A stretch of 64,000 nucleotides of DNA from a virus. The position numbers and the translations under genes were made by a program. The notes beneath the pieces are model-generated. The model saw only the letters and a list, made by a program, of their open reading frames with translations. It was not told the DNA's origin and did not search any database. This document shows positions 4,939-63,451 of this stretch, one piece after another; the first letter of the stretch is position 1, and each line of letters opens with the position of its first letter. The stretch spans positions 66 to 64,065 of the IMG/VR virus record IMGVR_UViG_3300014309_000025, one strand, 5' to 3'.

Positions 4939-6054
4939 TTAAATTGTTAATCCCGTTGATAAATGCCCTTTGATTGCTGGATGGTGATTGTACCCGGTTA
5001 CTTCTAAGTCCCCAAATTTTATATCATTTATGCTACCCCATTTCCTATCAGATATTTTAAGAATGGGTAATGGGTAGGGTTCTCTGGTGAGTTGTTCCTT
5101 AACCTGATCCATGTGGTCTTCGTAAATATGAACTGAGTTACCCGACCATATAAATTCTCCTGGTACCATATTTACTAGTTTAGCTACGATGTGGGTTAGG
5201 AAGGCATATGATGCTATATTGTATGGTACCCCCAGGAAAGTGTCGCAAGACCGTTGGACCATTTTACAGTCCAGGTAATATTTCGGGATATTTAGGTCAT
5301 CATATTCTTTATTTACATCACCATCTGTAGCATTTGGGTTCATACCAAATCTATCTTCTTCACTAAAATTGTGGATTTTAGCAAAATAATCCTCCCTCTG
5401 GGTTGCTTTCATTAACCTGCAATTAAACATAAACAACATGTGGCAAGGGGGTAATGCCATGTAATCAAGTTCAGCTGGGTTCCAGGCTGTAACTATATGG
5501 TACCTAGATAATGGGTTTTCCCTTATACTAATAATAATGCTTTTTATCTGGTCTATATATGTTGAAAAATTATGTGTATCCGGCCCTTTCCATTTTCTCC
5601 ATTGAGCCCCATATACTCTTCCCAGATCACCCATTTTATAATCTTTATATTTGGGTAATTGCCAATAGTTTTGTTTAACCTTATCAACAAATTCCTTAAA
5701 ACTCATTACTCGGTATAAACCATCTTCATTCTGGTGAAGTATCCCGTTCTGGTCACTGTCACCATTTAATTCTGCAAACCTTAGATAATATTTATAGGCA
5801 TCCTTGTTCCAAATATTTACCCCGTTATCTACGAGGTATTTAATGTTTGTGTCCCCTTTTAGGAACCAAAGCATTTCATGAAGTACTGATTGCCAACTTA
5901 CTTCCTTAGTTGTTACTAATGGGAACCCTTCTTGGAGGTTAAACCTTTTTTCTATGGAAAATACATCCAATGTTTTTGGCATGTTTTCTCTTGCGGGGTC
6001 TTTCCAGGTACCTTTCTCTAGGATTTCGTCTAGGATTTCTAAATACTGTTTCAT
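4939..6054 (-). CDS. thyA: thymidylate synthase
   Basis: GFPLVTTK, EMLWFLKG, GRVYGAQWR, AWNP, ALPPCH, QRSCDTFLGVPYNIASY (Asn177-equivalent, dUMP-specific) and HIY motifs. Confidence 0.97.
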   Translation of the reverse strand: MKQYLEILDEILEKGTWKDPARENMPKTLDVFSIEKRFNLQEGFPLVTTKEVSWQSVLHEMLWFLKGDTNIKYLVDNGVNIWNKDAYKYYLRFAELNGDSDQNGILHQNEDGLYRVMSFKEFVDKVKQNYWQLPKYKDYKMGDLGRVYGAQWRKWKGPDTHNFSTYIDQIKSIIISIRENPLSRYHIVTAWNPAELDYMALPPCHMLFMFNCRLMKATQREDYFAKIHNFSEEDRFGMNPNATDGDVNKEYDDLNIPKYYLDCKMVQRSCDTFLGVPYNIASYAFLTHIVAKLVNMVPGEFIWSGNSVHIYEDHMDQVKEQLTREPYPLPILKISDRKWGSINDIKFGDLEVTGYNHHPAIKGHLSTGLTI

Positions 6055-6736: not shown

Positions 6737-7174
6737 TTAATATATAATATTACAGGTTTTGAAATCCATTGTTAAAGCCATTGGTATTAACCATCTAAGG
6801 TTAGGGATTATATTCATGTTACCTTTCAACAGTAAATCAGTAACTCTTACTGCAATGACTTCTTCATCAGTAACTGTCTGGGGTATATTATGATTAAGGG
6901 GAAGTACTGAGGTAAATAGGTATACTTGCCATATTCCTTCCTTATTTGCACTTCCCATCATACCAAAATATTCCCAAGCTTTTATTAGTACTCCAGTTTC
7001 TTCCTGGAACTCTCTTGTCATGGCTTCATCTATAAGTTCCCCCAGTTCAATGTGGCCCCCTATACCATTTAATTTACCAGATTGCCAATCTGGCCTATTT
7101 TTCTTAATTAAGAAAACAAATTCCTTATTTGAACTAAAAAGGAAACCTAATACGTATCTTTTTAAATTAGCCAT
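6737..7174 (-). CDS. Nudix hydrolase
   Basis: Nudix box GGHIELGELIDEAMTREFQEETG. Confidence 0.92.
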   Translation of the reverse strand: MANLKRYVLGFLFSSNKEFVFLIKKNRPDWQSGKLNGIGGHIELGELIDEAMTREFQEETGVLIKAWEYFGMMGSANKEGIWQVYLFTSVLPLNHNIPQTVTDEEVIAVRVTDLLLKGNMNIIPNLRWLIPMALTMDFKTCNIIY

Positions 7175-7746
7175 CTTTCAAGTTTTGTTTTATAGGGTAA
7201 TCTTACTATATGACGGGGCATCCCACTTTGTGTTTTTCCCAGGCAATATACCCTATTATCCCCGGACATCTCCTCAACCTGGTGTATTCTATTTTTGTAA
7301 TCTTCACCATTATTTCCCCACATGAAGATTACTTCTCTAGACATGCTTAATGCCACCCCTAGCCAGTAATCACTGTTTGGAGTATTAAGTGTCCCCCTGT
7401 TCATAAGAGTTAATAATTTAGGATCAGTAGATATAACTGATAATAGGTTAACCATTATTACACCCCCGTAGCCCTCTTGTTTTGCAAAACCAATACATTT
7501 GGAAGTAGTTGGGTCATTATTAACCCCATTAGCTTTTGAAGGATTTACTCCTATGAAAACTATTTTGGCTAATGATTTATCCCAAGTTCTCCATAGGATA
7601 TACCTATGAGTTTGATCAAAGTTAAATATTGCCCCCCATGCCTTACTCTTTAGGTGTTGGGTTAATGTAGGGAAGTCTTCAATTTCTCTTTGATACTGTT
7701 TCTCCCATATAGAGGGGTTATGTTGTAACTGTGTCGGGGTTGCCAT
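7162..7746 (-). CDS. DUF1643-family protein
   Basis: HRYILWRTWD...FIGVNPSKA...DPT...GYGG...VNL...WG...PRH pattern. Confidence 0.8.
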   Translation of the reverse strand: MATPTQLQHNPSIWEKQYQREIEDFPTLTQHLKSKAWGAIFNFDQTHRYILWRTWDKSLAKIVFIGVNPSKANGVNNDPTTSKCIGFAKQEGYGGVIMVNLLSVISTDPKLLTLMNRGTLNTPNSDYWLGVALSMSREVIFMWGNNGEDYKNRIHQVEEMSGDNRVYCLGKTQSGMPRHIVRLPYKTKLERWLI

Positions 7747-8329: not shown

Positions 8330-9361
8330 ATGTTAAACATTTTAGGAGTAGATGCAGGTAATGGGGTGATAGTCCACCCTTTAAAAGACCACTTAGTTGG
8401 TAATTTAGAACCAAGGGGTATATTCCACTCCAAGGAAGAACGCCAATGGTTCTCAAATTTTTCAGTACCTATATTTAAAGATAAGGAGACATGCTACAAA
8501 CACATCAAAGACGTAGATGTGATTATTGGAAACCCAGATTGTGGCCATTCTAGTATATTAGCCTACAGCCGGGCTAAAAAATTTAGTGACCCACATGACA
8601 ATGAAAGTTTAAACACATTCTTTCAGGCTATTCAGCATTATAAACCAGTTATATGGTTAATGGAAAATTTACCTGCCCTATTACAAGCCTACACTAAAGA
8701 GGATTTTATTGAAATGTTTAGGGATTACCAACTATCATTTATCATAGGATCGGTCACTCAATTAGGTAATTCCCAGAAAGACCGGGTAAGGTTAGTAATT
8801 ACGGGCGTACATAAGGATATGGAACAGGAATTGGGAAGATTAAAATATATAGGGCTAACTCGTAATTTAAGTAAATTTTACAGAGTTAATGAGCCAACAG
8901 TATGCAGGAACCTATTTAATGGTATAGATGTTAAAGGGGAAGATAAATCTATAGGACACATCCGGGAAGATATTGATACGGTGATAACTCTTTATGGGGG
9001 TTTTAAAATGCCATTAAGGGAAATTCAAAGGCATTGGGAACATAATTGGTGTGAAAAACGTTGGAAAGTAACGGGAGAGAATTTTACTACTGCACCGGGT
9101 GTATATAGGAATTTAGATGATGGATTCCCTGCAACAGCCAGAAAAGCTAATCGCCAATTCAACCAATTAGGTTTAACCATGTCTCCAAGGGAATTAGCAA
9201 GGATTCAGGGAGTACCCGATTCATTCAACATTGCAGTAGGAAGTAGGAAAAATTATTGGATTAATAAAGGTAGAGCTTCGGTTACCAAATGTCCCCCATA
9301 CGAGTTAGGGGTTTGGTTCTATGATGTCCTGAAGAGTACAATACCAAATTTGCTTAAATAA
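8330..9361 (+). CDS. C5-cytosine DNA methyltransferase-like protein (atypical motifs)
   Basis: Motif I GVDAGNG, motif IV GNPDCGHSS, motif VI MENLP, motif VIII QKDRVRL, motif IX MSPRELARIQGVPDSF. Confidence 0.8.
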   Translation: MLNILGVDAGNGVIVHPLKDHLVGNLEPRGIFHSKEERQWFSNFSVPIFKDKETCYKHIKDVDVIIGNPDCGHSSILAYSRAKKFSDPHDNESLNTFFQAIQHYKPVIWLMENLPALLQAYTKEDFIEMFRDYQLSFIIGSVTQLGNSQKDRVRLVITGVHKDMEQELGRLKYIGLTRNLSKFYRVNEPTVCRNLFNGIDVKGEDKSIGHIREDIDTVITLYGGFKMPLREIQRHWEHNWCEKRWKVTGENFTTAPGVYRNLDDGFPATARKANRQFNQLGLTMSPRELARIQGVPDSFNIAVGSRKNYWINKGRASVTKCPPYELGVWFYDVLKSTIPNLLK

Positions 9362-50698: not shown

Positions 50699-51091
50699 AT
50701 GAGGGAGCCCAGAGAAAATATAAAAGGTGAAGATTTATTATTCCCAGTTGACATATTCAAACTGGGTTCAAAAGACGACCCTTGCTTCGGAAAATTACAT
50801 GACTTAAAACACCCAGCCTGCTCAGTATGTGGGGATGCTGATTTTTGTGCAATAGTAAAAGCACAGAACATGCATATTAAAAGAACCCAAATTGAATCAG
50901 AGGGTAGGTTTAAGGATAAAGAGGAAGCTGAGTTTTTACTCGAAGAGAAAACTGAAAAGGTAAAACAATACATAGAAGAATGTACAGAGAAGGGTTTACC
51001 TAAAAGTCTAATATTGGTTAGAGGTAAGGTTAAATTTAATTTAACCAAAGAATTAATGAGAGAAATATATGAATCCCTAATAAAAGAATAA
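50699..51091 (+). CDS. Cys-rich hypothetical protein
   Basis: PCFGK...CSVCGDADFC, four clustered cysteines. Confidence 0.7.
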   Translation: MREPRENIKGEDLLFPVDIFKLGSKDDPCFGKLHDLKHPACSVCGDADFCAIVKAQNMHIKRTQIESEGRFKDKEEAEFLLEEKTEKVKQYIEECTEKGLPKSLILVRGKVKFNLTKELMREIYESLIKE

Positions 51092-51093
51092 CG

Positions 51094-51873
51094 ATGGATA
51101 TCAGAGATATTAAAGAAGAAGTACCAAATGTAGGTACAAAGGGTTTAGAAGAAATTTTTAACCTGCAGTTAAACTTAGTTCAAAAGTATATTGACATAGA
51201 GGGGCTACCACCATACCCCATCAATATAAATACCCGGGCCGGCCAATCACTTATCAAAGATTTTATATCCAGGGTAATTGAGGAGTTGGGAGAAGCCTGG
51301 GAATCTTACTTGGTACTAATGGACATGTTTCATCGGGGTTACCAAAGAGAAGATATGGTACCCCACCTTCAAAATTTTAACGAGGAGCTAGGGGATGCTT
51401 TACACTTCCACATGGAGTTAATGATATACTCTGGTATATCTATTAAGGACATAACAGATGGAGATAACATAGATGCTATGACCAAACTTTTAAAGTTGGG
51501 GGAAGATAACCTTTTAACAGAATTTCCCAAACCCTCAACCTATGCTAGCTTTGTAGTAATAAAGGATGAGGACTTGGTAGATGAATTTTTAAGGGGTGGG
51601 AGGCATTTAAGTAAAAAACACATGGCTGTAATGGAGAGGTATTTGTGGAGAACTACTTATTGGTATCAGGTAGCTCGTAACACTCTTAAGAATAAGCCTT
51701 GGAAACAATCCCAGATGTTAACAGATGAGTTAACCTATAAACAATACATACTGAGAGCTAATGAATTGCTATTCCAGTTCTTTTATTTCATTGGGATGAC
51801 CCCTAGATCACTGTTTACTATTTATTATAAGAAGAACCTCATAAACTGTTTTAGGATTAAATCAAACTATTAA
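51094..51873 (+). CDS. all-alpha NTP pyrophosphatase (dimeric dUTPase/dCTPase-like)
   Basis: EELGEAWE, EELGDALHF, LKNKPWK and YYKKNLINCFRI. Confidence 0.8.
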   Translation: MDIRDIKEEVPNVGTKGLEEIFNLQLNLVQKYIDIEGLPPYPININTRAGQSLIKDFISRVIEELGEAWESYLVLMDMFHRGYQREDMVPHLQNFNEELGDALHFHMELMIYSGISIKDITDGDNIDAMTKLLKLGEDNLLTEFPKPSTYASFVVIKDEDLVDEFLRGGRHLSKKHMAVMERYLWRTTYWYQVARNTLKNKPWKQSQMLTDELTYKQYILRANELLFQFFYFIGMTPRSLFTIYYKKNLINCFRIKSNY

Positions 51874-51875
51874 AC

Positions 51876-52202
51876 ATGTCACAGGATACAATACTCTTTG
51901 GAAATTTTATAATAGCAATAGAATACTTTATAATTCCCCGATGGGACGATGCTGATGTACAAGAGTTTAAAATTGCTAAAACACCCACAAGGAGAAGGGT
52001 GCTTGGAAATCTACCCGGTAAAAATACTATAGATGTTCACAATGTAACTATCTTTAATAAAAAATGTAATTTTAATTCCACTATGGTTGAAATACCCTAT
52101 GCTGCTGTATTAGCTGTAAAGTCTCACATAGACGATGTTATATCCAAAACACCCGATTACAGTTCGGTAACTCTTAAACAATCCCTAGATGATTCAAAGT
52201 AA
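51876..52202 (+). CDS. hypothetical protein
   Basis: 108-aa ORF packed in the operon. Confidence 0.65.
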   Translation: MSQDTILFGNFIIAIEYFIIPRWDDADVQEFKIAKTPTRRRVLGNLPGKNTIDVHNVTIFNKKCNFNSTMVEIPYAAVLAVKSHIDDVISKTPDYSSVTLKQSLDDSK

Positions 52203-52971
52203 CCATGCTACATCTCAGGAAGCCTGGGAATTTATAAATGAATACCTTGTATTAAAAGAGGAAGAGGTAGTTGCTAATGGGGGTAATAGGTATGGTTCAC
52301 AAATATTATCCTATGACCACTTCATGGAGATTAATAAATCATGGGTTGATCCTAACTTTAACTTTGGGTATATGTTTGGGTATACCATGAGTAAGTGGAC
52401 AAGGTTAGTAAATAATTATGTTAACTTTGATTACTTGGACATAGTTAAAAGTGAGGTGCTGCTAAAGGAAAAGAAAAAAACTTCAAACTATAATATTGCA
52501 TATAAGTTTGACAATAACCATGGTAGTGGGAAAGGTTGCTTATTAAGTTTGGTTTTCCAAAGAAGGATTACCCAGGATAACCCAATACTAATCTTAAACT
52601 TAAGATCCTCAGAAGTAACTAAAAGGCTAATATTTGACTTTTTATTAATACAAAGGATGGCTGAATATGTATATGGAGAAAGAGCAAGTGTTAGTGTTAA
52701 ACTCTATTGTGCTAATATATATACATCTGGGGAAACTTTTACCATGTATGAAAATTACAAATCTATAAGGAAACTTTTAAAGGGATCAGAAACAGAAATG
52801 TCCCGAAGGGTATTAGCTGCAATGGACAAATTTGAAACAATAGACCCAGCAAAGGTCCCATATAAAATCCATAGAAGGGCAGTTAAACAACTCCAGAAGG
52901 ATGAAACTGGTAAACCTATATCGGGGGTACCAGATTTATTTGCTAAGAATTGTAAATTTAAAACCAATTAA
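52189..52971 (+). CDS. divergent thymidylate-synthase-fold protein (dCMP-type)
   Basis: GKGCLLSL (Cys), LRSSEVTKRLIFD (Asp at the 177-equivalent position) and ANIY. Confidence 0.65.
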   Translation: MIQSNHATSQEAWEFINEYLVLKEEEVVANGGNRYGSQILSYDHFMEINKSWVDPNFNFGYMFGYTMSKWTRLVNNYVNFDYLDIVKSEVLLKEKKKTSNYNIAYKFDNNHGSGKGCLLSLVFQRRITQDNPILILNLRSSEVTKRLIFDFLLIQRMAEYVYGERASVSVKLYCANIYTSGETFTMYENYKSIRKLLKGSETEMSRRVLAAMDKFETIDPAKVPYKIHRRAVKQLQKDETGKPISGVPDLFAKNCKFKTN

Positions 52972-52972
52972 T

Positions 52973-53275
52973 ATGAACAAAGTAAAAGTTACACCCGACC
53001 TACAAAGAGTTATAGTCCTACCCGACCCAGCACCAGATAAGATTGGTAGTATATTAGTGCCTGATACTTCTAAGAAAGATAAACCCGGTAAAGGTACAAT
53101 AGTTGTATCTGGGTTGGGAGAAGCTGACAGGCCAATGAGATATTTCCCCGGAGATAGGATAGTATACTCTTTGTATTCGGGTACTGAGGTTGAACTTAAC
53201 CTTGATGGTAAAGAGAAGACATATTTAATCATGAATCAGATGGACATCTGGTTAAAAATGGAGGATGCAGAATGA
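52973..53275 (+). CDS. groES: co-chaperonin GroES
   Basis: PDLQRVIV...GSILVPD...KPGKGTIV...GDRIVYSLYSGTEV...YLIMNQMDI; ATG at 52973. Confidence 0.9.
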   Translation: MNKVKVTPDLQRVIVLPDPAPDKIGSILVPDTSKKDKPGKGTIVVSGLGEADRPMRYFPGDRIVYSLYSGTEVELNLDGKEKTYLIMNQMDIWLKMEDAE

Positions 53276-54009
53276 GAGTATTCGGGGATTGCTACGAATT
53301 AATGAGTGAGGTAATGAGAGATGTCTATGAAATGGGACACAAGGTTCACCCTCACTCAATGCAAAATAAAATCGTAAAGGACGATGATAATTTTGAGACA
53401 AAGGAAATTATAAACTATAGTTATTGCCTAACATCAATGTCAAGAAAGGATTACTTATTCATAATAAGTAAATCCCTTAAGTGGGCAATGGCAGAATTTG
53501 AAGAGAGGATTGAGTCAAGGTTTGACGAGGGTCATGTAAACCCCGGAGAAGCCTGGAAGCTTAGGCCCGAAGTATGGAAACAATTTATAAATGAAGAAGG
53601 TAAGTTTGATTACACCTATAATGAACGTATAGACCCGGTTGGTAGGTTATATTTTATTGTAGATGAATTAAAAACAAACCCAGATTCAAGGCAATGTGTA
53701 TTACCAATATTTTATCCCAGGGATTTATATGAAATGGGAGGTCAAAAAAGAATCCCCTGTTCATTGCACTACCAATTTCTACTCCGGGATGGTAGACTTA
53801 ATATAGTGTACAATCAAAGGAGTGCAGATGTAGTAACCCATTTTGGTAATGACGTATTCCTGGCATGGATGTTAATGTCACATGTAGCTAAGGAAGTAGG
53901 GGTAAAAGAGGGTTATCTATTCCATAACATTGCCTCACTTCATGCCTATAAAAAAGATTGGCCAACTCTTAAGAAATCAATCTCTGACATAAAGGATGCA
54001 CAAGCTTAA
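53272..54009 (+). CDS. dCMP hydroxymethylase-like enzyme (thymidylate synthase fold)
   Basis: YTYNER, PDSRQ, IPCSLHYQF, QRSADVVTHFGND (Asp at the 177-equivalent position, as in T4 gp42) and SLHAY. Confidence 0.85.
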   Translation: MRVFGDCYELMSEVMRDVYEMGHKVHPHSMQNKIVKDDDNFETKEIINYSYCLTSMSRKDYLFIISKSLKWAMAEFEERIESRFDEGHVNPGEAWKLRPEVWKQFINEEGKFDYTYNERIDPVGRLYFIVDELKTNPDSRQCVLPIFYPRDLYEMGGQKRIPCSLHYQFLLRDGRLNIVYNQRSADVVTHFGNDVFLAWMLMSHVAKEVGVKEGYLFHNIASLHAYKKDWPTLKKSISDIKDAQA

Positions 54010-56131
54010 AATAATAACCACTGAAAAAGAGGTCGACCAGCTTATAGGGTTTTGTAAACAAACAAAATATTGTAGCCAAGACTTTGAAACAAATGGGGGA
54101 TCATCTAAGGATAGTTGGGCATTTCCAACTATCCTTGGTGTGTCATTTCAACCGGGGTCATCTTGGATAATCCCATTAGGCCATTTTGATAGCCCATTTC
54201 AGGATTGGGAAAGGATACTACGTAAATTTGGTAGAGAAGTAATTGAGAACTCAAACATAGTTAAGATAGGCCAAAATCTTAAGTATGAATATAACTGGTG
54301 GTATAGGTATGGCATTAAGATGGAGGGCGTTCTACTAGATACCATGTTAGGTAAATACCTACTTGATGAGGAAAGGCCCCATGACTTAAAAAGTATGGTG
54401 GCTAAGTGGGTACCAGAGTATGCAGGATACGATTTAAAGGGACAGCCCAAGAAAGATGCGTCCCCTGAACAGATGATGAATTTCTGGGGGAAAGTGCCTT
54501 TAGATATACTATCTGAATATTGCGGATTAGATTCTGATTGTACGTTTAGGTTAATGATGTACTTTGAACCCTTACTTATCAAGCAAGGTTTTTACCCATT
54601 GTTTAGGAACATGTTAATGATGGGTACAAGGGTACTTGCTGACGCTGAAAGGCAAGGTATGGTAGTAAATAAAACTTTTTTGAAAGAAATAAAGGTTAAG
54701 TATGCTAAGGATATTAAAGACCAGGAAGAAGCCTTATACTTAGTACCCGATGTTCAGAAATATGAAAAGGGTAAAGCCAAAGAGATTAAGAAACTTCTAA
54801 TAGAAAAGGCTGAAAAAGAGTTAGAAGATTTAAGGGATGACGGTGCAAGTGATATAGTAATTAAAAACAAAGAAAAGAAATTATCGGGTTATATAGCGGG
54901 GATATATACTAACAATAAGGAAAGGAAGTTATTTGAAAGGACAAACTTTGGATCACCCCAACAAATGTCAGACCTATTATTTGATTCCAAATATGGGTTT
55001 AAATTTGAACCTTTTAAGAAGACTGATTCGGGGGCATGGTCTACGGATGAGGAGACTTTGTTAGTATTAAAAGAAGAGGATACTAGTGGTTTTATTAATA
55101 AGTTATTAGAATATAGGGGTGTAACTAAATTATATTCTACTTACATTGAAGGAATCTTAAATAAGCTTACACCATGTGACACTTTGCACGGTAGTTTTTT
55201 ATTGCATGGAACTGTAACCGGTAGACTATCCTCAAGAAACCCTAACCTTCAAAACATACCCAGGGTAACTACTAATGCCGATATAAAGAAAATGTTTATA
55301 GCCCCTAAGGGAATGGTATTACTCCAAATGGACTACTCTCAAGCTGAGCTTAGGGTGCTTGCTGCAATGGCTAAGGAATTAACAATGTTAGAATGGTTCA
55401 GAACAGGTAAGGATATCCACTTAGCTACAGCCTGTAAGAAATATGATTTTGATTATGATAAGGCACTTAAGATTTTGGATGACGAAAGTCATAAAGACAA
55501 CAAACTTTGGAAAGTAAGAAGGAAGCAAGCCAAAACAACAAACTTTGGTATTGCATACGAGCAAGGGGTAAAAGCTTTAGGCGCTAAAATGAGAGAGCAA
55601 GGGGTTGAGGTAACCGATGAAGAGGTACAACAATTCCTGGATGATTGGTTTAAAGATTTTCCTAGGGTAAAGAAATTTATTAAGAGCCAACATAAATTTG
55701 CTGAAGAGAATGGTTATGTTAAAAGTTTATTTGGTAGGAAAAGAAGGTTACCAGATGTTGACTCAGATAATAAATGGAAAAAATTAGATGCTCTTAGGCA
55801 ATCAACAAATACACCAATACAATCTGCTGCATCAGACTATGCACTGTTCTCATCAGTACTTGTTAGAGATCGGATAATTAGGCACAAGTTACCAAAAACT
55901 CTATTACAAATTGGTACAGTACATGACTCTATACTATTCTATACTTATCCCAATGACATACATGGTATAGTACCAGAACTTCTTAACATTGCCCGTAACC
56001 CAGAAACCAAGATATGGTTCAATTTCGAGGTAACTTCAGTAAGGATGGAGGCAGACTTTGAAGTGGGGTTAGATTGGGCAGATTTACATAAATATAATAA
56101 GGTTGCTAATTACCTTGAGCTAGTTAACTAA
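53996..56131 (+). CDS. polA: DNA polymerase family A with 3'-5' exonuclease
   Basis: Exo motifs DFET, QNLKYE and YCGLD; TGRLSSRNPNLQNIP; motif A DYSQAELR; motif B KTTNFGIAY; motif C VHDS. Confidence 0.97.
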   Translation: MHKLKIITTEKEVDQLIGFCKQTKYCSQDFETNGGSSKDSWAFPTILGVSFQPGSSWIIPLGHFDSPFQDWERILRKFGREVIENSNIVKIGQNLKYEYNWWYRYGIKMEGVLLDTMLGKYLLDEERPHDLKSMVAKWVPEYAGYDLKGQPKKDASPEQMMNFWGKVPLDILSEYCGLDSDCTFRLMMYFEPLLIKQGFYPLFRNMLMMGTRVLADAERQGMVVNKTFLKEIKVKYAKDIKDQEEALYLVPDVQKYEKGKAKEIKKLLIEKAEKELEDLRDDGASDIVIKNKEKKLSGYIAGIYTNNKERKLFERTNFGSPQQMSDLLFDSKYGFKFEPFKKTDSGAWSTDEETLLVLKEEDTSGFINKLLEYRGVTKLYSTYIEGILNKLTPCDTLHGSFLLHGTVTGRLSSRNPNLQNIPRVTTNADIKKMFIAPKGMVLLQMDYSQAELRVLAAMAKELTMLEWFRTGKDIHLATACKKYDFDYDKALKILDDESHKDNKLWKVRRKQAKTTNFGIAYEQGVKALGAKMREQGVEVTDEEVQQFLDDWFKDFPRVKKFIKSQHKFAEENGYVKSLFGRKRRLPDVDSDNKWKKLDALRQSTNTPIQSAASDYALFSSVLVRDRIIRHKLPKTLLQIGTVHDSILFYTYPNDIHGIVPELLNIARNPETKIWFNFEVTSVRMEADFEVGLDWADLHKYNKVANYLELVN

Positions 56132-56163
56132 ATCCTTAAGTACTATTAATTATAAATACCTGG

Positions 56164-56625
56164 ATGAACAAACTAAGGAAATATTTCAGCAAGTCAGACT
56201 TAATGAATTTAAAAATAATCTATGGGGAAGAGATTTTTAAATTTAACCTTTTTGAAGAACTAACCATAAGTGAAGATAAGATAAATGCAGAAGCTAAAGA
56301 ACAACCCTCAGCTTATGGGTTCTTAGGGTTATTAGCAATCCAACTTAAGAAAATAAAGAAAGAAAAAGAGAATGACCTGAATATGGAATACTCCAGGTTA
56401 TACCTATTAAATAAAGATAAAAAAGACCCCTCTACGGGTAGGCCAATGAGTAAGGATTTTATAGAAGCCAAGATAGTAACAAACCTATCATACCAGGCTA
56501 AACTAAAAATACTTTGGCAAGCAGAGGCAGATGCTGAGAATCTGGATACATGCGTAAAGTCATTTGAACAAAGAGCAAACATGATCCAGACATTGTCTGC
56601 AAACGTAAGGAAGGATAGAAGTTAA
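56164..56625 (+). CDS. UvsY-like recombination mediator
   Basis: Helical 153 aa with C-terminal KSFEQRANMIQTLSANVRKD; next to the SSB and RecA genes. Confidence 0.65.
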   Translation: MNKLRKYFSKSDLMNLKIIYGEEIFKFNLFEELTISEDKINAEAKEQPSAYGFLGLLAIQLKKIKKEKENDLNMEYSRLYLLNKDKKDPSTGRPMSKDFIEAKIVTNLSYQAKLKILWQAEADAENLDTCVKSFEQRANMIQTLSANVRKDRS

Positions 56626-58540: not shown

Positions 58541-59408
58541 CATACTTATCCTGGATGGTAATCATTTAGCTTACCGGGCTTATTATAAGTTTTCTAACCT
58601 GAAAACTATGGACGGGAAAAAGACTTCTATTATATTTGGTATGCCTTATATAATAGAGTCTTTACTACGTAAACATAAACCTGGTAAGGTAGTATTAGCA
58701 TTTGATGGGGGTAGCCACACTTCCAGGTTAACCCTTTTACCCACATATAAAAAGAGAGACCATAAATTAAACTTTGATTCTGAAGATTTCTTTAAACAAA
58801 AGGATATTGCCCGGGATTTGCTTAGGGATTTAGGTATACCCATTATATGGAAAAAAGGGTTTGAGGCTGATGATCTAATAGCTATGTTATCCTTAAGAGA
58901 AAGTCGGAAAGAAAAATTTGTAACCATAGTATCCGGTGACAAGGACTTCAACCAACTAATAGATGGGTTCACCACTGTATGGAACTCCCAAAATGGCGAG
59001 AGGTATAATAAGATAAACCTTAAACATAAAGTAGGATACCACCCGGAACAGTGCGTAGATTACCTTTGCTTAACCGGAGACCACTCGGATAACATTCCGG
59101 GGTATGGGGGTATAGGTGAAAAACGTGCGATTGAATTTTTAGATATGTACCCTAGTATCCGGGAGTATTTAAAGAGTGGGCAGAAATATAAGTCTATTGA
59201 TAATAATAAACTAGCAGCAGTATATAAGACCAACAGGCAGCTTATTGACCTAGGGTATTTCTATAGGCATTTTATGGTTAAGGAAAATATACCTTGGTTA
59301 TATAAGGAGCCTGAAATAAACCTTAACTCAGTTAGGTTTATAGCTAAGTCTTATGAAGTAGGTACTTTTAATAAACCAGATTTCTTAAAAACATTCACTA
59401 GCTTATGA
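58524..59408 (+). CDS. 5'-3' exonuclease / flap endonuclease
   Basis: ILDGNHLAYR, YKKR, EADDLI, SGDKDFNQL and GDHSDNIPGYGGIGEK. Confidence 0.93.
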   Translation: MSNPSDILILDGNHLAYRAYYKFSNLKTMDGKKTSIIFGMPYIIESLLRKHKPGKVVLAFDGGSHTSRLTLLPTYKKRDHKLNFDSEDFFKQKDIARDLLRDLGIPIIWKKGFEADDLIAMLSLRESRKEKFVTIVSGDKDFNQLIDGFTTVWNSQNGERYNKINLKHKVGYHPEQCVDYLCLTGDHSDNIPGYGGIGEKRAIEFLDMYPSIREYLKSGQKYKSIDNNKLAAVYKTNRQLIDLGYFYRHFMVKENIPWLYKEPEINLNSVRFIAKSYEVGTFNKPDFLKTFTSL

Positions 59409-60013
59409 GCACCTTTAGAAAACTTTGGGAGCAAGCAAAACCAAAACTTTGTTCCTGGCCTATAGTAACTCCCCAAGAAATTAAAATAACGGGAACACCT
59501 TCACCCGATATTACCATAAATTGGGATACCCTAAGAAGTATGGGGGGATTAACTGCTGAAGAAGCATGGGATAATCTAACAAGAAAACTAGACGATGAAG
59601 AACCCAAACTATATGACGACCAGCTTAGGCATTTCTTTGATAACCTATGGCGTTGGAAGTTTGGGTTACCTGAGAAAAGCGAGGATGGTTATCATCCTTA
59701 CGGGAAAGCAAAAGACTTGGATAACATACCTAAATGTCAATACAGTGGGGAATTTACCAAGCTGATGAATAACCGAATGATAATGGGTTATTTTAGGTAT
59801 GGTGATAAAAGTAACCCCTCCCAAAGAAAAACCTTTGATTACATAAAATCCATTGAAAGAAGGTTGGCTATCTATAAAGAAGAGGGTAACACTGAGCAAT
59901 TAATAGACATTGCCAATATGTGCAGGATGGAGTTTGAACACCCTCAACATTCAAAAGCCCACTTTAAAAGTACAGATGACATAAACCATACACATCCTAG
60001 TGACATTAAATGA
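59405..60013 (+). CDS. hypothetical protein, possible MazG-like nucleotide pyrophosphohydrolase
   Basis: C-terminal RMIMGYFRYG...GNTEQLIDIANMCRMEF resembles all-alpha dNTP diphosphohydrolase domains. Confidence 0.45.
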   Translation: MSTFRKLWEQAKPKLCSWPIVTPQEIKITGTPSPDITINWDTLRSMGGLTAEEAWDNLTRKLDDEEPKLYDDQLRHFFDNLWRWKFGLPEKSEDGYHPYGKAKDLDNIPKCQYSGEFTKLMNNRMIMGYFRYGDKSNPSQRKTFDYIKSIERRLAIYKEEGNTEQLIDIANMCRMEFEHPQHSKAHFKSTDDINHTHPSDIK

Positions 60014-60978
60014 GTAAACTAATAGGAATAGCTACGGGGGATTTCCACCTTAACAACTGGAAGCAATTCAACCCCAAGGGAAAAAGGTTAAAACAAAATC
60101 TCGACATGGTTCGGGATTTTATTATATTATCTAACGACCGTAAAGTACCCATCTGGTTTACTGGGGATTTTTTGCATACTCCTGATTTTATAAGTAATAA
60201 ACTCCTTGATGCTATAACCGAAACATTACAGGGGTTATTTGAGAAATACCCTAATGCAAAAATGTACGCTATAACAGGTAATCACGATCAATCCGAAAGC
60301 AATACATTAACCACACCTTCTCCGTCTTATATAAAGTCATTAAGCAGAGTAATACCCAATATAATTTGTATTGATTATAAAAGTGTCCTAACTAAAGGGG
60401 TAATGTTACATGGTATACCTTACCTAGACCATAACAGGGGTTTTGAGGAAGCCATTAAAAACAATTGGTTAGAGCCTGGTTTAAAACACATACTAATGAT
60501 CCATACAAATTTGTACGGTGCGACTGACCCTAGTGGTTATGAAGTATCCAGTGTAGAAAATATCCCCCGGAATATGGGTAAATTTTTTAAGGACTTCGAT
60601 ATGGTATTATCCGGGCATATACATAAAACAAAAGAGCTATGGCCTAACAAAGTATACATGGTGGGATCACCCTGTCAACAAAGAAAATCTGATATGGGTT
60701 GTAAGATGTGCTACCTGGAAATATATGAAGACCTAAAAGTAAAGACAGTAGAAACCAATTACCCAGAATTTAGGTATTACGATGGGGATAAACCCCCGGA
60801 TGATTTTAATTACTGGATGCCTAAACCTAAGAAAAAAGAAAACAAAATAGAGGTAATAAAAACCTTTAATAATACACTAAGCAGACGGGATATAGTAGAT
60901 AGTTACTTTGATGTAAAAGGTATTGACAGTAATATTAAGAAAAAGTTTTTGATGGACTTACTAAACAGCGTAGAATGA
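60010..60978 (+). CDS. Mre11/SbcD-like metallophosphoesterase nuclease
   Basis: GDFH, GDFLH, GNHD, SGHIH and VGSP. Confidence 0.9.
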   Translation: MSKLIGIATGDFHLNNWKQFNPKGKRLKQNLDMVRDFIILSNDRKVPIWFTGDFLHTPDFISNKLLDAITETLQGLFEKYPNAKMYAITGNHDQSESNTLTTPSPSYIKSLSRVIPNIICIDYKSVLTKGVMLHGIPYLDHNRGFEEAIKNNWLEPGLKHILMIHTNLYGATDPSGYEVSSVENIPRNMGKFFKDFDMVLSGHIHKTKELWPNKVYMVGSPCQQRKSDMGCKMCYLEIYEDLKVKTVETNYPEFRYYDGDKPPDDFNYWMPKPKKKENKIEVIKTFNNTLSRRDIVDSYFDVKGIDSNIKKKFLMDLLNSVE

Positions 60979-62852
60979 TAAAGATAAAGGAAATGGAAAT
61001 AGAGGGATATGCCTCACTGAAACATATAGTTTTTAATTGGGATCAGGAAGGTCTGAATGTTATTCAAGCCCCTAATGGTAGTGGTAAATCCAAATTGATA
61101 TCCTCACTGATTTGGATACTTTACGGTAAACCCCTTTCAGGATCTGTTACTCCTTGGGAATCCCTTCAGGTTGATGGTTATAAAGGCACAAAAGGGACAA
61201 TTAAAGTTAGGTCAGGTAAAACATTATACCAAATAATAAGGTGTAAGGATTACAAGGGTGAAGTGTTGGGGGCTAAAGGGAAAGATAGGTTAATTATAAC
61301 CCAGAAGGTGGGAGACAACTTTGAAGAGGTACCCATTGATAAAAAGAAAGGGGATAAACAAAAATATATAGATAGCTTAATGGGTTATTCCTTTGAGCTG
61401 TTTAAGAACTCAATAATATTTGGACAGAAGTTAAAAAAATTAATATCAGAATCAGGCCCTAATAAAAAGAAGGTTCTTGATGAAGCATTTGAGGTATTAT
61501 GGATTACCAACGCAAAGAAGGCAGCTGAGGAAAGGCTAACTAAAGTAAAGCTGGAGATATATAAGGTAGACCCATTGATTGATTCCCTCCAGGTAAGAAT
61601 AATGAGTGAAGAGAAATTACTTAAGTCCCTTAAGGTAGAAAAAGCAGAGAGGGCTAAAAATACTAAGGTTCTAATTGACCAATTAAACCTAGAGATAAAG
61701 GACTTAAAGAAAACCCTTAAAGATTACCAATCAAAGGCTGATCTAATACCTAATCATAATGATAGGGTATCTAAGTTGCATAAGAAAATAGAGAGTATTA
61801 ACCAACAGAAAAGGGGCAAGGAAAAATCACTAAGAAAGGAGTCTATTAAACTGGAGTCTGACAAAACATTTAATAACAGGTCTATCACAGAACTTAGAGA
61901 TAGCCTATTAGAGTTGGAAAAGTCTCTAAGTGTTTTACCTAAATATTGCCCTAGGTGTAAAAAGCCCTTTTCAAAATCAGAAAGGGATGAGGAGGGTAAA
62001 ACCATAGAGTCAGAAATAAAGGGAAAAGAACTATCTATATTAGACTTAGAAGCAGATATTAAAGAGATAGTCTTAGGTATAACTGCTAATAAAAAAGGGT
62101 ATTCTAGTTTAAGTAAATTTACTGAAGAAGTAGAATTACTTAGTAAAGAGAAAAATGCACTAGAAAACAAGATTTCTAACTACCTAGAATTTAAGGACCA
62201 GATACCCATTATAAAGAAAAAGATTTTTGATAAGGAAACCCAGATACATGATATTAACAAGGACTCTGATGAAAATAATATTCCCAAATTAGAGAAGTCT
62301 ATAGCAGATCTTAAAAATGAGCTTAAGCCAATTGAGATAAACTTTATTAAACTTAAAAGGCAAAAGAAATTATTACAGTGGGCTATTAATGAACCTTTGT
62401 CAAACTCGGGATTCAAGGTATACATATTTGATACTATGCTTGACAAGGTAAATGATAGGTTAGAGTATTATTCGGACTTCGTTGGATTCAAGATAATATT
62501 TGCAGTAGACCTAATTGGTAAAAATAAAGACATAAATACCTACATAATTAAAAACGAGGAGGTATGCCCCTACGAAGATTTATCGGGGGGTCAACAACAA
62601 TCTGTAGATATTGCAACCATTTTCGCTATCCATGATGTGGTAACTGAAAATAAATCTTGTAACCTACTTTTAATGGATGAGGTATTTGAAAGCCTGGATT
62701 CTTCAAACATAGAATTAGTAACCGAGTTAATCCAGGAAAAATCAAAAGATAAATGCTTATACCTAGTAACCCACAGGTCTGAGTTTATACCTACTCATTC
62801 CAACATTATTCATATAGATTATAAAAATGGTATAAGCTCCATAGCTCAATAA
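60975..62852 (+). CDS. Rad50/SbcC-like ATPase
   Basis: APNGSGKS, zinc hook CPRC, LSGGQ, MDEVFESLD and VTH. Confidence 0.93.
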   Translation: MIKIKEMEIEGYASLKHIVFNWDQEGLNVIQAPNGSGKSKLISSLIWILYGKPLSGSVTPWESLQVDGYKGTKGTIKVRSGKTLYQIIRCKDYKGEVLGAKGKDRLIITQKVGDNFEEVPIDKKKGDKQKYIDSLMGYSFELFKNSIIFGQKLKKLISESGPNKKKVLDEAFEVLWITNAKKAAEERLTKVKLEIYKVDPLIDSLQVRIMSEEKLLKSLKVEKAERAKNTKVLIDQLNLEIKDLKKTLKDYQSKADLIPNHNDRVSKLHKKIESINQQKRGKEKSLRKESIKLESDKTFNNRSITELRDSLLELEKSLSVLPKYCPRCKKPFSKSERDEEGKTIESEIKGKELSILDLEADIKEIVLGITANKKGYSSLSKFTEEVELLSKEKNALENKISNYLEFKDQIPIIKKKIFDKETQIHDINKDSDENNIPKLEKSIADLKNELKPIEINFIKLKRQKKLLQWAINEPLSNSGFKVYIFDTMLDKVNDRLEYYSDFVGFKIIFAVDLIGKNKDINTYIIKNEEVCPYEDLSGGQQQSVDIATIFAIHDVVTENKSCNLLLMDEVFESLDSSNIELVTELIQEKSKDKCLYLVTHRSEFIPTHSNIIHIDYKNGISSIAQ

Positions 62853-62893
62853 GTCTAGTAAGGCAACCTACTATTTTTCTTAAATAACCTTAC

Positions 62894-63451
62894 ATGAACT
62901 CAAAAAAGAAAGGAAATCGCAATGAGAGAAAAACTGCAAAGCTTTTTGAGACGTGGACCGGTTACCCATTCGAAAGAGTCCCTTCTTCTGGGGGTTTAAG
63001 GTGGGCTAAAAAATCAGATACAGTTGGTGATATAATCTGTACAGATGAACACCATTCAAGGTACTTCACCTTTTCTATTGAATGTAAGGCACATGCAGAA
63101 ATTAACTTTAGTGAATTACTACTTCCCAATAAAGGCGTTAAAATCTTAGAGTTCTGGTCCCAAGCTTGCGAGGATGCAACCAGAGCAAACCGGATACCCA
63201 TACTACTAATGAGGTTTAATGGTATGCCAAGTGATTTTTACTTTGTAGTATTAAGTTCGGATTACGTAGATTACCTTAACTACCACGATAACGATGGGAC
63301 TAGGTTTGTAATAAGTAACGTCCTAGAATACCTAGGGGATAAAATGGCTATAAGGATATTCCCTTCTACCGACTTATTTAAATGGCCCTATGGGGGTAAT
63401 GGTGGAGTACATAAATTAAATAAAGCCTATATAAAAAATGGTAAAACCTAG
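62894..63451 (+). CDS. Holliday junction resolvase (PD-(D/E)XK)
   Basis: SKKKGNRNER...RVPSSGG...GDI...SIECK. Confidence 0.85.
   Translation: MNSKKKGNRNERKTAKLFETWTGYPFERVPSSGGLRWAKKSDTVGDIICTDEHHSRYFTFSIECKAHAEINFSELLLPNKGVKILEFWSQACEDATRANRIPILLMRFNGMPSDFYFVVLSSDYVDYLNYHDNDGTRFVISNVLEYLGDKMAIRIFPSTDLFKWPYGGNGGVHKLNKAYIKNGKT

Follow-up and report, generated by a model that had tools for sequence, protein, structure and literature searches.

Why does a phage carry three genes of the thymidylate synthase (TS) fold, two of them packed into the gene run that ends with its DNA polymerase? TS homologues are, to our knowledge, the entry point of nearly all hypermodifications of pyrimidines known from phage DNA. 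The question is raised here by a 64-kb phage record from IMG/VR (IMGVR_UViG_3300014309_000025, positions 66 to 64,065, 64,000 nucleotides), the whole stretch of which we call the window; the record is ~75% complete, and its relatives measure 80–85 kb. An earlier note, made from the letters alone, had placed three TS-fold genes in this DNA and quoted a motif for each, and genes, coordinates and motifs are all confirmed. One encodes a canonical thymidylate synthase, ThyA, while the other two encode TSD, a cytosine-type member of the TS family, and TSL2, a divergent protein predicted to have the same fold. On balance, we lean towards reading their locus as a cassette in which TSD and TSL2 modify deoxycytidine monophosphate (dCMP) at C5 before replication. 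It would most likely belong to a general type of cassette that is already known, and its basis would be an uncharacterised clade of TS homologues with Asp at position 177 (positions 21–209 of TS proteins follow E. coli ThyA numbering) together with an orphan TS-fold enzyme.

A conserved gene run ending in PolA

The run occupies positions 50699–56131 of the plus strand, and its genes have abutting or overlapping ends, the start of the polymerase gene overlapping the end of the TSD gene by 14 bases. For its genomic context we used an IMG/VR pattern scan that returned 470 stretches encoding TSL2 relatives, of which 80 viral loci were kept, along with five relatives (G001, G002, G003 and G005 among them; G001 and G003 are complete). 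From first to last, the run consists of:

50699..51091 (+): conserved small open reading frame (ORF), 130 amino acids (aa), first gene of the proposed operon; 71 of the 80 loci have a homologue upstream of the cassette, and phrog_3616 (function unassigned; E 2.4e-4) is its sole match
51094..51873 (+): predicted all-alpha deoxynucleoside triphosphate (dNTP) pyrophosphatase, 259 aa; PF08761, phrog_12184
51876..52202 (+): ORF of 108 aa between the pyrophosphatase and TSL2 genes; found by tblastn in 0 of the 80 loci
52189..52971 (+): TSL2, divergent protein of predicted TS fold, 260 aa, isoelectric point (pI) 9.17; AlphaFold2 model and structural matches
52973..53275 (+): GroES-like co-chaperonin; PF00166 (Cpn10), E 1.4e-10
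53272..54009 (+): TSD, cytosine-type TS-family enzyme, 245 aa; PF00303
53996..56131 (+): family A DNA polymerase (PolA), from its ORF and sequence; a PolA homologue lies downstream in 78 of the 80 loci

In 78 of the 80 loci, a TSD homologue is the next gene downstream of TSL2, an arrangement that is therefore far from chance; the TSL2–TSD pair is a widespread, conserved cassette and not the quirk of a single phage. A pyrophosphatase homologue is encoded upstream of TSL2 in 70 of the loci. The ORF coordinates and the recurrence of PolA bear out the observation of the earlier note that the whole set stands beside PolA. We consider it somewhat probable that the run is a translationally coupled operon of the replication module, the core of which would be a conserved phage cassette altering cytosine nucleotides before replication, with PolA as the presumed user of the modified dNTP. 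The GroES-like gene, which is taken to start at 52973, the first Met after TSL2 ends (its mechanical ORF extends back to 52901), has a homologue in 16 of the 80 loci, with a match 4–5 kb further on in four (L051, L061, L082 and L083), and probably lies outside the nucleotide pathway. Neither Pfam nor PHROG offers a family above threshold for the 108-aa ORF, whose sub-threshold hint is to a single-stranded DNA-binding protein or oligonucleotide-binding fold (SSB/OB-fold; E 0.087); in G001 the pyrophosphatase and TSL2 genes abut directly, without this ORF between them.

Two loci, L027 (2559–3071) and L052 (3331–3906), have an unrelated ORF of 170–191 aa at the TSD site, between TSL2 and PolA. 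Neither ORF matches the TSD profile or Pfam, and both were rejected as TSD. L052 keeps a deaminase of the kind discussed below; both contigs are short, and TSD might lie elsewhere. In G003, contig 1, a TSD match with one in-frame TGA is found at 52387–52836.

A megablast search of 51000–56200 against deposited phages gave no matches. The same gene order is found in cultured phages of four host phyla:

Clostridium perfringens phage CPD4: gp73 dUTPase_2 (E 2.5e-11), gp74, gp75 TS, gp79 DNA polymerase I
Mycobacterium phage Muddy (gp49 to gp44): thymidylate kinase, dUTPase, gp47, TS, gp45, DNA polymerase I
Serratia phage Serbin and Streptomyces phage Zuko: same order, with a deaminase after TS
Brevundimonas phage Strzyga: same order, without a deaminase

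In CPD4, Muddy, Serbin and Zuko, an annotated DNA polymerase I stands at the position of PolA, and the TS genes of all five phages encode R143, Q127, S/T147, H173 and D177 together with a short C-terminus. Support for a TSL2 relative in the middle position is good for CPD4 gp74 (hhalign 94.6%, E 6.5e-8; 43.7 bits), fair for Serbin gp51 (18.6 bits) and weak for Muddy gp47 (hhalign 59%, E 9e-5; 7.9 bits), so that calling gp47 TSL2-like is plausible, though not secure by sequence alone. In a MAFFT alignment of six TSL2-like proteins, each has the Cys, the Arg and the twelfth-residue Asp in the same columns. The paper on Yersinia enterocolitica P744 mentions neither thymidylate nor restriction nor modification, and the sole literature passage found on Muddy concerns a QueC-like protein.

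Residues and folds of TSD and TSL2

TSD belongs to the TS superfamily, with a PF00303 match of E 1.2e-18 (67.7 bits, where the cut-off is 24.3). Its model (predicted local distance difference test score, pLDDT, 94.5) aligns in VIA-align with AfhB, a 5-hydroxy-dCMP synthase (9iqc; Z 23.4, root mean square deviation (rmsd) 2.4, 217 residues aligned), with the mildiomycin enzyme MilA (Z 23.2, rmsd 1.9, 221 residues) and with ThyA (Z ~21), giving Z scores of 20–23 to the three over 206–221 residues. In alignment with E. coli ThyA, TSD retains Cys146, R166, D169, H207, Y209, Y94, W80 and R126. It has Asp177, Arg143, Gln127, Ser147 and His173, and its C-terminus is truncated, ending ~20 residues after Y209, where E. 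coli ThyA runs 55 beyond that tyrosine. Among PDB sequences, it comes closest to the L. casei TS mutant N229D, the query Asp being aligned to N229.

The C-terminal tail of ThyA closes over the folate, and its R127 reaches into the active site of the other subunit. By analogy, the lost C-terminal lid of TSD would make hydride transfer of the TS type unlikely. TSD differs from a canonical ThyA specific for deoxyuridine monophosphate (dUMP) by the Asp at 177, the Gln at 127 and the missing tail. It differs from T4 gp42-type enzymes by Arg143, which is not acidic and is found in the window as well as in all 75 full-length partner ORFs of the 80 loci, and from 5-hydroxy-dCMP synthases by Asp in place of Asn169 (TSL2, with an invariant Glu142, differs from them too). 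It shares 20.7% identity with PaMx74 gp52, the single reference compared for that type, and differs from it at positions 21, 58, 127, 143, 147 and 173. The 75 partner ORFs also have P145, C146, R166, D169, D177 and H207 throughout, with Gln or Lys at position 127, and fall into a Tyr209 subtype (55 loci; also the subtype of the window) and a Phe209 subtype (20 loci). Judged by these residues, TSD is a separate clade, marked by Arg143, Gln/Lys127, His173 and the missing C-terminal lid, that fits no characterised Asp177 class.

The published signatures place TSD only in part. In PMC13326640, Asp177 is linked to dCMP as the substrate, an acidic residue at position 143 to hydroxymethyl and a bulky hydrophobic one to methyl transfer, and Asn169 to 5-hydroxy-dCMP synthases; TSD has Asp177, while its Arg143 and Asp169 fit neither of the other two signatures. 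An excerpt of the MetaGPA study (PMC8670742) names 177 and 147 as the positions at which modified-cytosine and unmodified contigs can best be told apart, and there TSD has Asp177 and Ser147. Excerpts of the same study and of bioRxiv 10.1101/2024.12.05.627091 further describe the combination of Asp177 TS homologues, MazG/PRA-PH-type pyrophosphatases and PolA as a mark of modified-cytosine contigs in metaviromes, with which the gene set beside PolA agrees.

TSL2 lies outside the PF00303 profile, with 0 Pfam families at E ≤ 1, and matches phrog_34294 (function unassigned) at E 1.5e-7. Its AlphaFold2 model, built on 47 homologues (pLDDT 94.6), has 10 Foldseek matches at E ≤ 0.001 (E 1e-4 to 1e-3, probability 1.00, TM-score by query 0.42–0.46), consisting of MilA, AfhB and T4 dCMP hydroxymethylase. 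In VIA-align, AfhB scores highest (9iqu: Z 13.6, rmsd 3.7, 180 residues aligned; second AfhB structure: Z 13.2), followed by MilA (Z 12.2) and ThyA (Z ~10); 396 chains reach Z ≥ 8, and all 50 rows listed belong to the TS superfamily. According to the model, TSL2 thus adopts a strongly diverged TS fold, and the possibility considered in the earlier note, that the protein at 52189 lacks this fold, did not hold.

TSL2 has 365 homologues at E ≤ 0.001, and a profile search among 1.84 billion cluster representatives gave 189 members at E ≤ 0.001, while E. coli ThyA and T4 gp42 score at noise level against the profile. Across 47 sequences of the family, C117, R139, S141, E142, R146 and D150 do not vary; C117 would be the nucleophile, R139 the phosphate-binding Arg and D150 the specificity residue. 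Equivalence to ThyA residues is here based on spacing and secondary structure: the R139–D150 spacing of 11 equals that between R166 and N177 of ThyA, and Glu142 replaces D169. Both paralogues therefore have the Cys and the cytosine-type Asp that had been read from their motifs (in the alignment of TSD; as C117 and D150 in TSL2), and the description of the 52189 protein as highly divergent, with D169 changed to Glu, is upheld by the invariance of Glu142. The further change that had been pointed out in this protein, from HIY to NIY, fits the strand-end position in the model, but the Asn is not conserved in the family. Some members are extended: P0302, P0273 and P0254 have C-terminal extensions of ~100–230 residues without a known domain, which are low-complexity and proline/glutamine-rich in P0302 and rich in basic residues in P0273 and P0254.

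Is TSL2 an enzyme, or does it assist one? An active enzyme seems to us likelier than a passive partner, because the Cys, Arg and Asp are kept and because TSL2 occurs without an adjacent TSD in two of the 80 loci, which favours an ability to work by itself. The alternative, which we regard as unlikely, is that TSL2 is a degenerate partner subunit of TSD, as one half of a heterodimer or as a replisome scaffold, which would supply or shield parts of a shared active site in a single chemical step. Such a partnership would suit the near-constant adjacency of the two genes, the replacement of R127 by Gln or Lys in every full-length TSD ORF, the opposite charges of the two proteins (the TSL2 family is basic, with a median pI of 9.31 over 47 sequences and many members with Lys/Arg-rich tails, against 6.15 for TSD) and the much faster divergence of TSL2; the heterodimer idea is still alive because of this fast divergence and the lack of Arg127 in TSD. 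A scaffold, on the other hand, would need none of the Cys, Arg and specificity Asp that are kept in six very distant phages; no fusion to PF00303 is found among eight unusually long TSL2-family proteins, and the basic charge is not universal among distant TSL2-like proteins (Zuko gp75 has a pI of 5.67). A prediction of the TSD–TSL2 complex gave no answer (score 0.00 in two runs, without controls) and counts neither way on binding.

A proposed route from nucleotide pool to DNA, and its rivals

The first gene product of the proposed route is the pyrophosphatase at 51094. It matches PF08761 (dUTPase_2; E 3e-6, 28 bits, where the cut-off is 22.9) and the nucleotide pyrophosphohydrolase family phrog_12184 (E 3.2e-21). 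The profile of its family (19 members) resembles T4 gp56 dCTPase over the C-terminal 50 residues of gp56 only (hhalign 93.6%, E 2.1e-7) and the dimeric dUTPase of C. jejuni (1w2y; E 2.4e-4); the latter is reached by the family profile only, as phmmer with the protein alone found nothing at E ≤ 1 among PDB sequences. E64, E67, E98 and D101 are invariant in the 19 sequences, and a set of four acidic residues that bind metal characterises the all-alpha dNTP pyrophosphatase superfamily. By profile and motif, the 51094 protein is a member of the family that unites all-alpha dimeric dUTPases with T4 gp56 dCTPase, and the earlier wording of a "dCTPase-like" neighbour appears fair as a statement about family, given PF08761 and the gp56-related profile.

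In the route that we propose, the 51094 protein would hydrolyse deoxycytidine triphosphate (dCTP), and likely deoxyuridine triphosphate (dUTP), to the monophosphate, thereby removing the normal precursor and feeding the next enzyme. TSD would then bind dCMP via its Asp177-type residue, with Cys163 attacking C6 and a one-carbon unit being added at C5. Since TSD lacks the C-terminal lid of TS, hydroxymethyl-dCMP or an otherwise trapped intermediate is a likelier outcome than reductive methylation. TSL2 would be a second competent enzyme acting on a cytosine nucleotide, either on the product of TSD or in parallel. Finally, a kinase and the phage PolA would put the product into DNA. A more specific version, which we find doubtful, makes TSL2 the founder of a new catalytic branch of the TS fold that uses its conserved Cys to re-activate or intercept a C5-substituted cytosine nucleotide (for instance the exocyclic-methylene or hydroxymethyl product of TSD) and adds a group new to DNA.

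Three genes elsewhere in the window bear on this route:

4939..6054 (−): canonical ThyA; PF00303, E 3.2e-93
8330..9361 (+): C5-cytosine DNA methyltransferase-like protein; PF00145, E 5.1e-16
59405..60013 (+): near-orphan ORF of 202 aa at the site of the relatives' P-loop kinase; no Pfam or PHROG family

ThyA lies 47 kb from the cassette on the opposite strand, has two insertions and retains L143, H147, D169 and N177; a match of canonical strength is present in one of the five relatives, which marks the gene as accessory within the group. Near it, a NUDIX hydrolase (6737–7174, minus strand; E 1.1e-12), which could also act on the nucleotide pool, and a DUF1643 protein (7162–7746, minus strand; E 3.1e-35) are encoded. 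The methyltransferase-like gene has homologues with 41–51% identity in all five relatives, and five sequences share the Cys of an unusual P-(D/N)-C motif as well as E-N-L and Q-x-R-x-R. Its co-inheritance with the TS-fold pair may reflect a functional link, or may mean that the C5 of cytosine stays free. At the place of 59405–60013, G001 encodes a syntenic P-loop protein of the AAA_28 type (E 6.8e-12), homologues of which are found in 62 of the 80 loci. The ORF of the window has one homologue and weak leads to MazG/PRA-PH from Atlas (0.78–0.81); as a relative of the 51094 family it was rejected (hhalign 0.2%). It is followed, after the replication genes, by an SbcD-like phosphoesterase, an SbcC/Rad50-like ATPase and a phage PDDEXK nuclease (60010–63451, plus strand), which are ordinary recombination equipment.

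Base composition was also considered. The window is strongly depleted in CpG (odds ratio 0.42) without an excess of TpG/CpA, and a CC/GG excess of 1.58; the CpG ratio is 0.40 in G001 and 0.10 in a stretch of CPD4. Among palindromes checked for restriction-site avoidance, which would be an indirect sign of unprotected DNA, GATC occurs at 0.56 of expectation and GGCC and CCGG at expectation. No conclusion is drawn from these palindrome and dinucleotide statistics.

Several observations weigh against C5 modification by the cassette. A methyltransferase would be left without a substrate if every cytosine had a group at C5, so that the conserved C5-methyltransferase-like gene argues against complete replacement. 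The window, in which ~25% of the genome is missing, encodes neither a P-loop kinase like that of G001 nor a dCMP deaminase or a dihydrofolate reductase (DHFR). No glycosyltransferase or other transferase is found among ten larger extra genes scanned in G001, nor is any transferase found among the genes covered overall by what was a partial scan. TSD lacks the residues aligned to R21, E58 and R127 of ThyA (the alignment being unreliable at positions 21 and 58), which may leave it less able than T4 gp42 to act alone, while the fast divergence of TSL2 also fits a non-catalytic partner. In hmmsearch, the middle genes of Zuko and Strzyga do not outscore the TS controls, and they are placed by synteny and motifs only. 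The literature, as far as searched, holds no nucleoside data on this phage or on any other carrier, and in an excerpt of bioRxiv 10.1101/2024.12.05.627091 five of seven deaminase-linked Asp177 TS homologues made 5-methyl-dCMP alone.

This last result also speaks for a reading that we consider quite unlikely, in which the cassette mainly reshapes the nucleotide pool without full replacement of cytosine. As proposed for Xp12-type phages, dCMP would be converted to 5-methyl-dCMP and then, by a deaminase selective for 5-methylcytosine (5mC), towards deoxythymidine triphosphate (dTTP), while in the phage studied here cytosine would be largely canonical and methylated at specific sites by the C5 methyltransferase, whose conservation counts in favour of this reading. 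A dCMP-family deaminase directly follows TSD in 23 of the 80 loci (19 of the 20 of the Phe209 subtype and 3 of the 55 of the Tyr209 subtype) and is present in G003, G005, Serbin and Zuko, and the excerpt just cited combines the 5-methyl-dCMP products with a deaminase proposed to yield dTTP. The window has ThyA without a deaminase, and G003 and G005 have a deaminase without ThyA. However, G001 and G002 have neither, and since the window, G001 and G002 all lack the deaminase, a route to dTTP does not account for the pair in these three. The same preprint links such neighbourhoods with full-5mC phages and with contigs that had been selected for their modified cytosine; PaMx74, moreover, represents a different clade, with a full-length N143 TS that has R21, E58 and R127, with DHFR and without TSL2. 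That TSL2 (or, less probably, TSD) is instead a flavin-dependent dCMP 5-hydroxylase like AfhB (phage HY126) or RB69 gp48, with 5-hydroxycytosine as its product, is very unlikely: AfhB comes first among the structural neighbours of each model, but the differences in Z are small (13.6/13.2 against 12.2 for MilA with TSL2; 23.4 against 23.2 with TSD), the Asn169 signature described in PMC13326640 is replaced by Asp in TSD and by the invariant Glu in TSL2, and the genes scanned include no arabinosyl- or other glycosyltransferase.

The preferred reading remains C5 modification of dCMP by the TSD/TSL2 cassette ahead of replication, and the interpretation of the locus as a cytosine-modification pathway, as the earlier note had put it, is partly supported.

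Known relatives and significance

The pathway for 5-hydroxymethylcytosine (hmC) in T4, consisting of gp56, gp42 and the deoxynucleoside monophosphate (dNMP) kinase gp1, offers the most familiar comparison. Like it, the cassette has a gp56-related all-alpha pyrophosphatase and an Asp177 TS-family enzyme in which position 147 is not His and the C-terminus is shortened, and it is placed by a DNA polymerase gene. Unlike it, TSD has Arg143 where gp42 has Asp143, along with Gln127 and His173; a second TS-fold gene stands in the cassette, with none in the T4 stretches examined; and the window is without a P-loop kinase and, among the genes scanned, without a glucosyltransferase. MilA, the CMP 5-hydroxymethylase of mildiomycin biosynthesis (5jnh, 5b6d), is likewise a cytosine-specific enzyme of the TS fold, but acts on a ribonucleotide in a bacterial antibiotic pathway and, according to PMC13326640, has Asp143 in place of the Arg143 of TSD.

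The 5-hydroxy-dCMP synthases (AfhB, 9iqu/9iqc; RB69 gp48; DLP3 gp80) share the TS fold and the Asp177 type and include the best structural neighbours of both models, whereas their D169N change is absent from TSD and TSL2, and no arabinosylation genes are seen among the genes scanned. The 5mC type of Xp12 and PaMx74, the latter named as a full-5mC phage in bioRxiv 10.1101/2024.12.05.627091, resembles the cassette in combining a pyrophosphatase, an Asp177 TS homologue and a deaminase (the last in the 23 loci mentioned above) beside PolA. PaMx74, with which alone the comparison was made, differs in that gp52 is full length with R21, E58, R127 and N143, that DHFR is present and that no TSL2 lies between pyrophosphatase and TS, while the window is without deaminase and DHFR.

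In the literature searched, we found no published description of the TSL2 family or of its pairing with TSD. Active-site signatures of TS homologues are now used to predict the modified base of a phage, and the cassette holds two things that they do not cover: an Asp177 clade with Arg at 143, the position reported to separate methyl from hydroxymethyl transfer, and a second TS-fold protein that is invisible to Pfam. If TSL2 does represent a new catalytic branch, an undescribed cytosine derivative would be present in hundreds of phages, from gut and environmental ones of the Bacteroidota type to those of C. perfringens and Muddy, a therapeutic mycobacteriophage. The chemistry of the pair is experimentally accessible, since cultured phages carry both genes, Muddy and biocontrol phages of C. 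perfringens among them. Resolving the product would refine the rules by which modifications are predicted and would help to explain resistance or sensitivity to restriction, including type IV systems, and it may yield an enzyme activity that is useful in sequencing chemistry.

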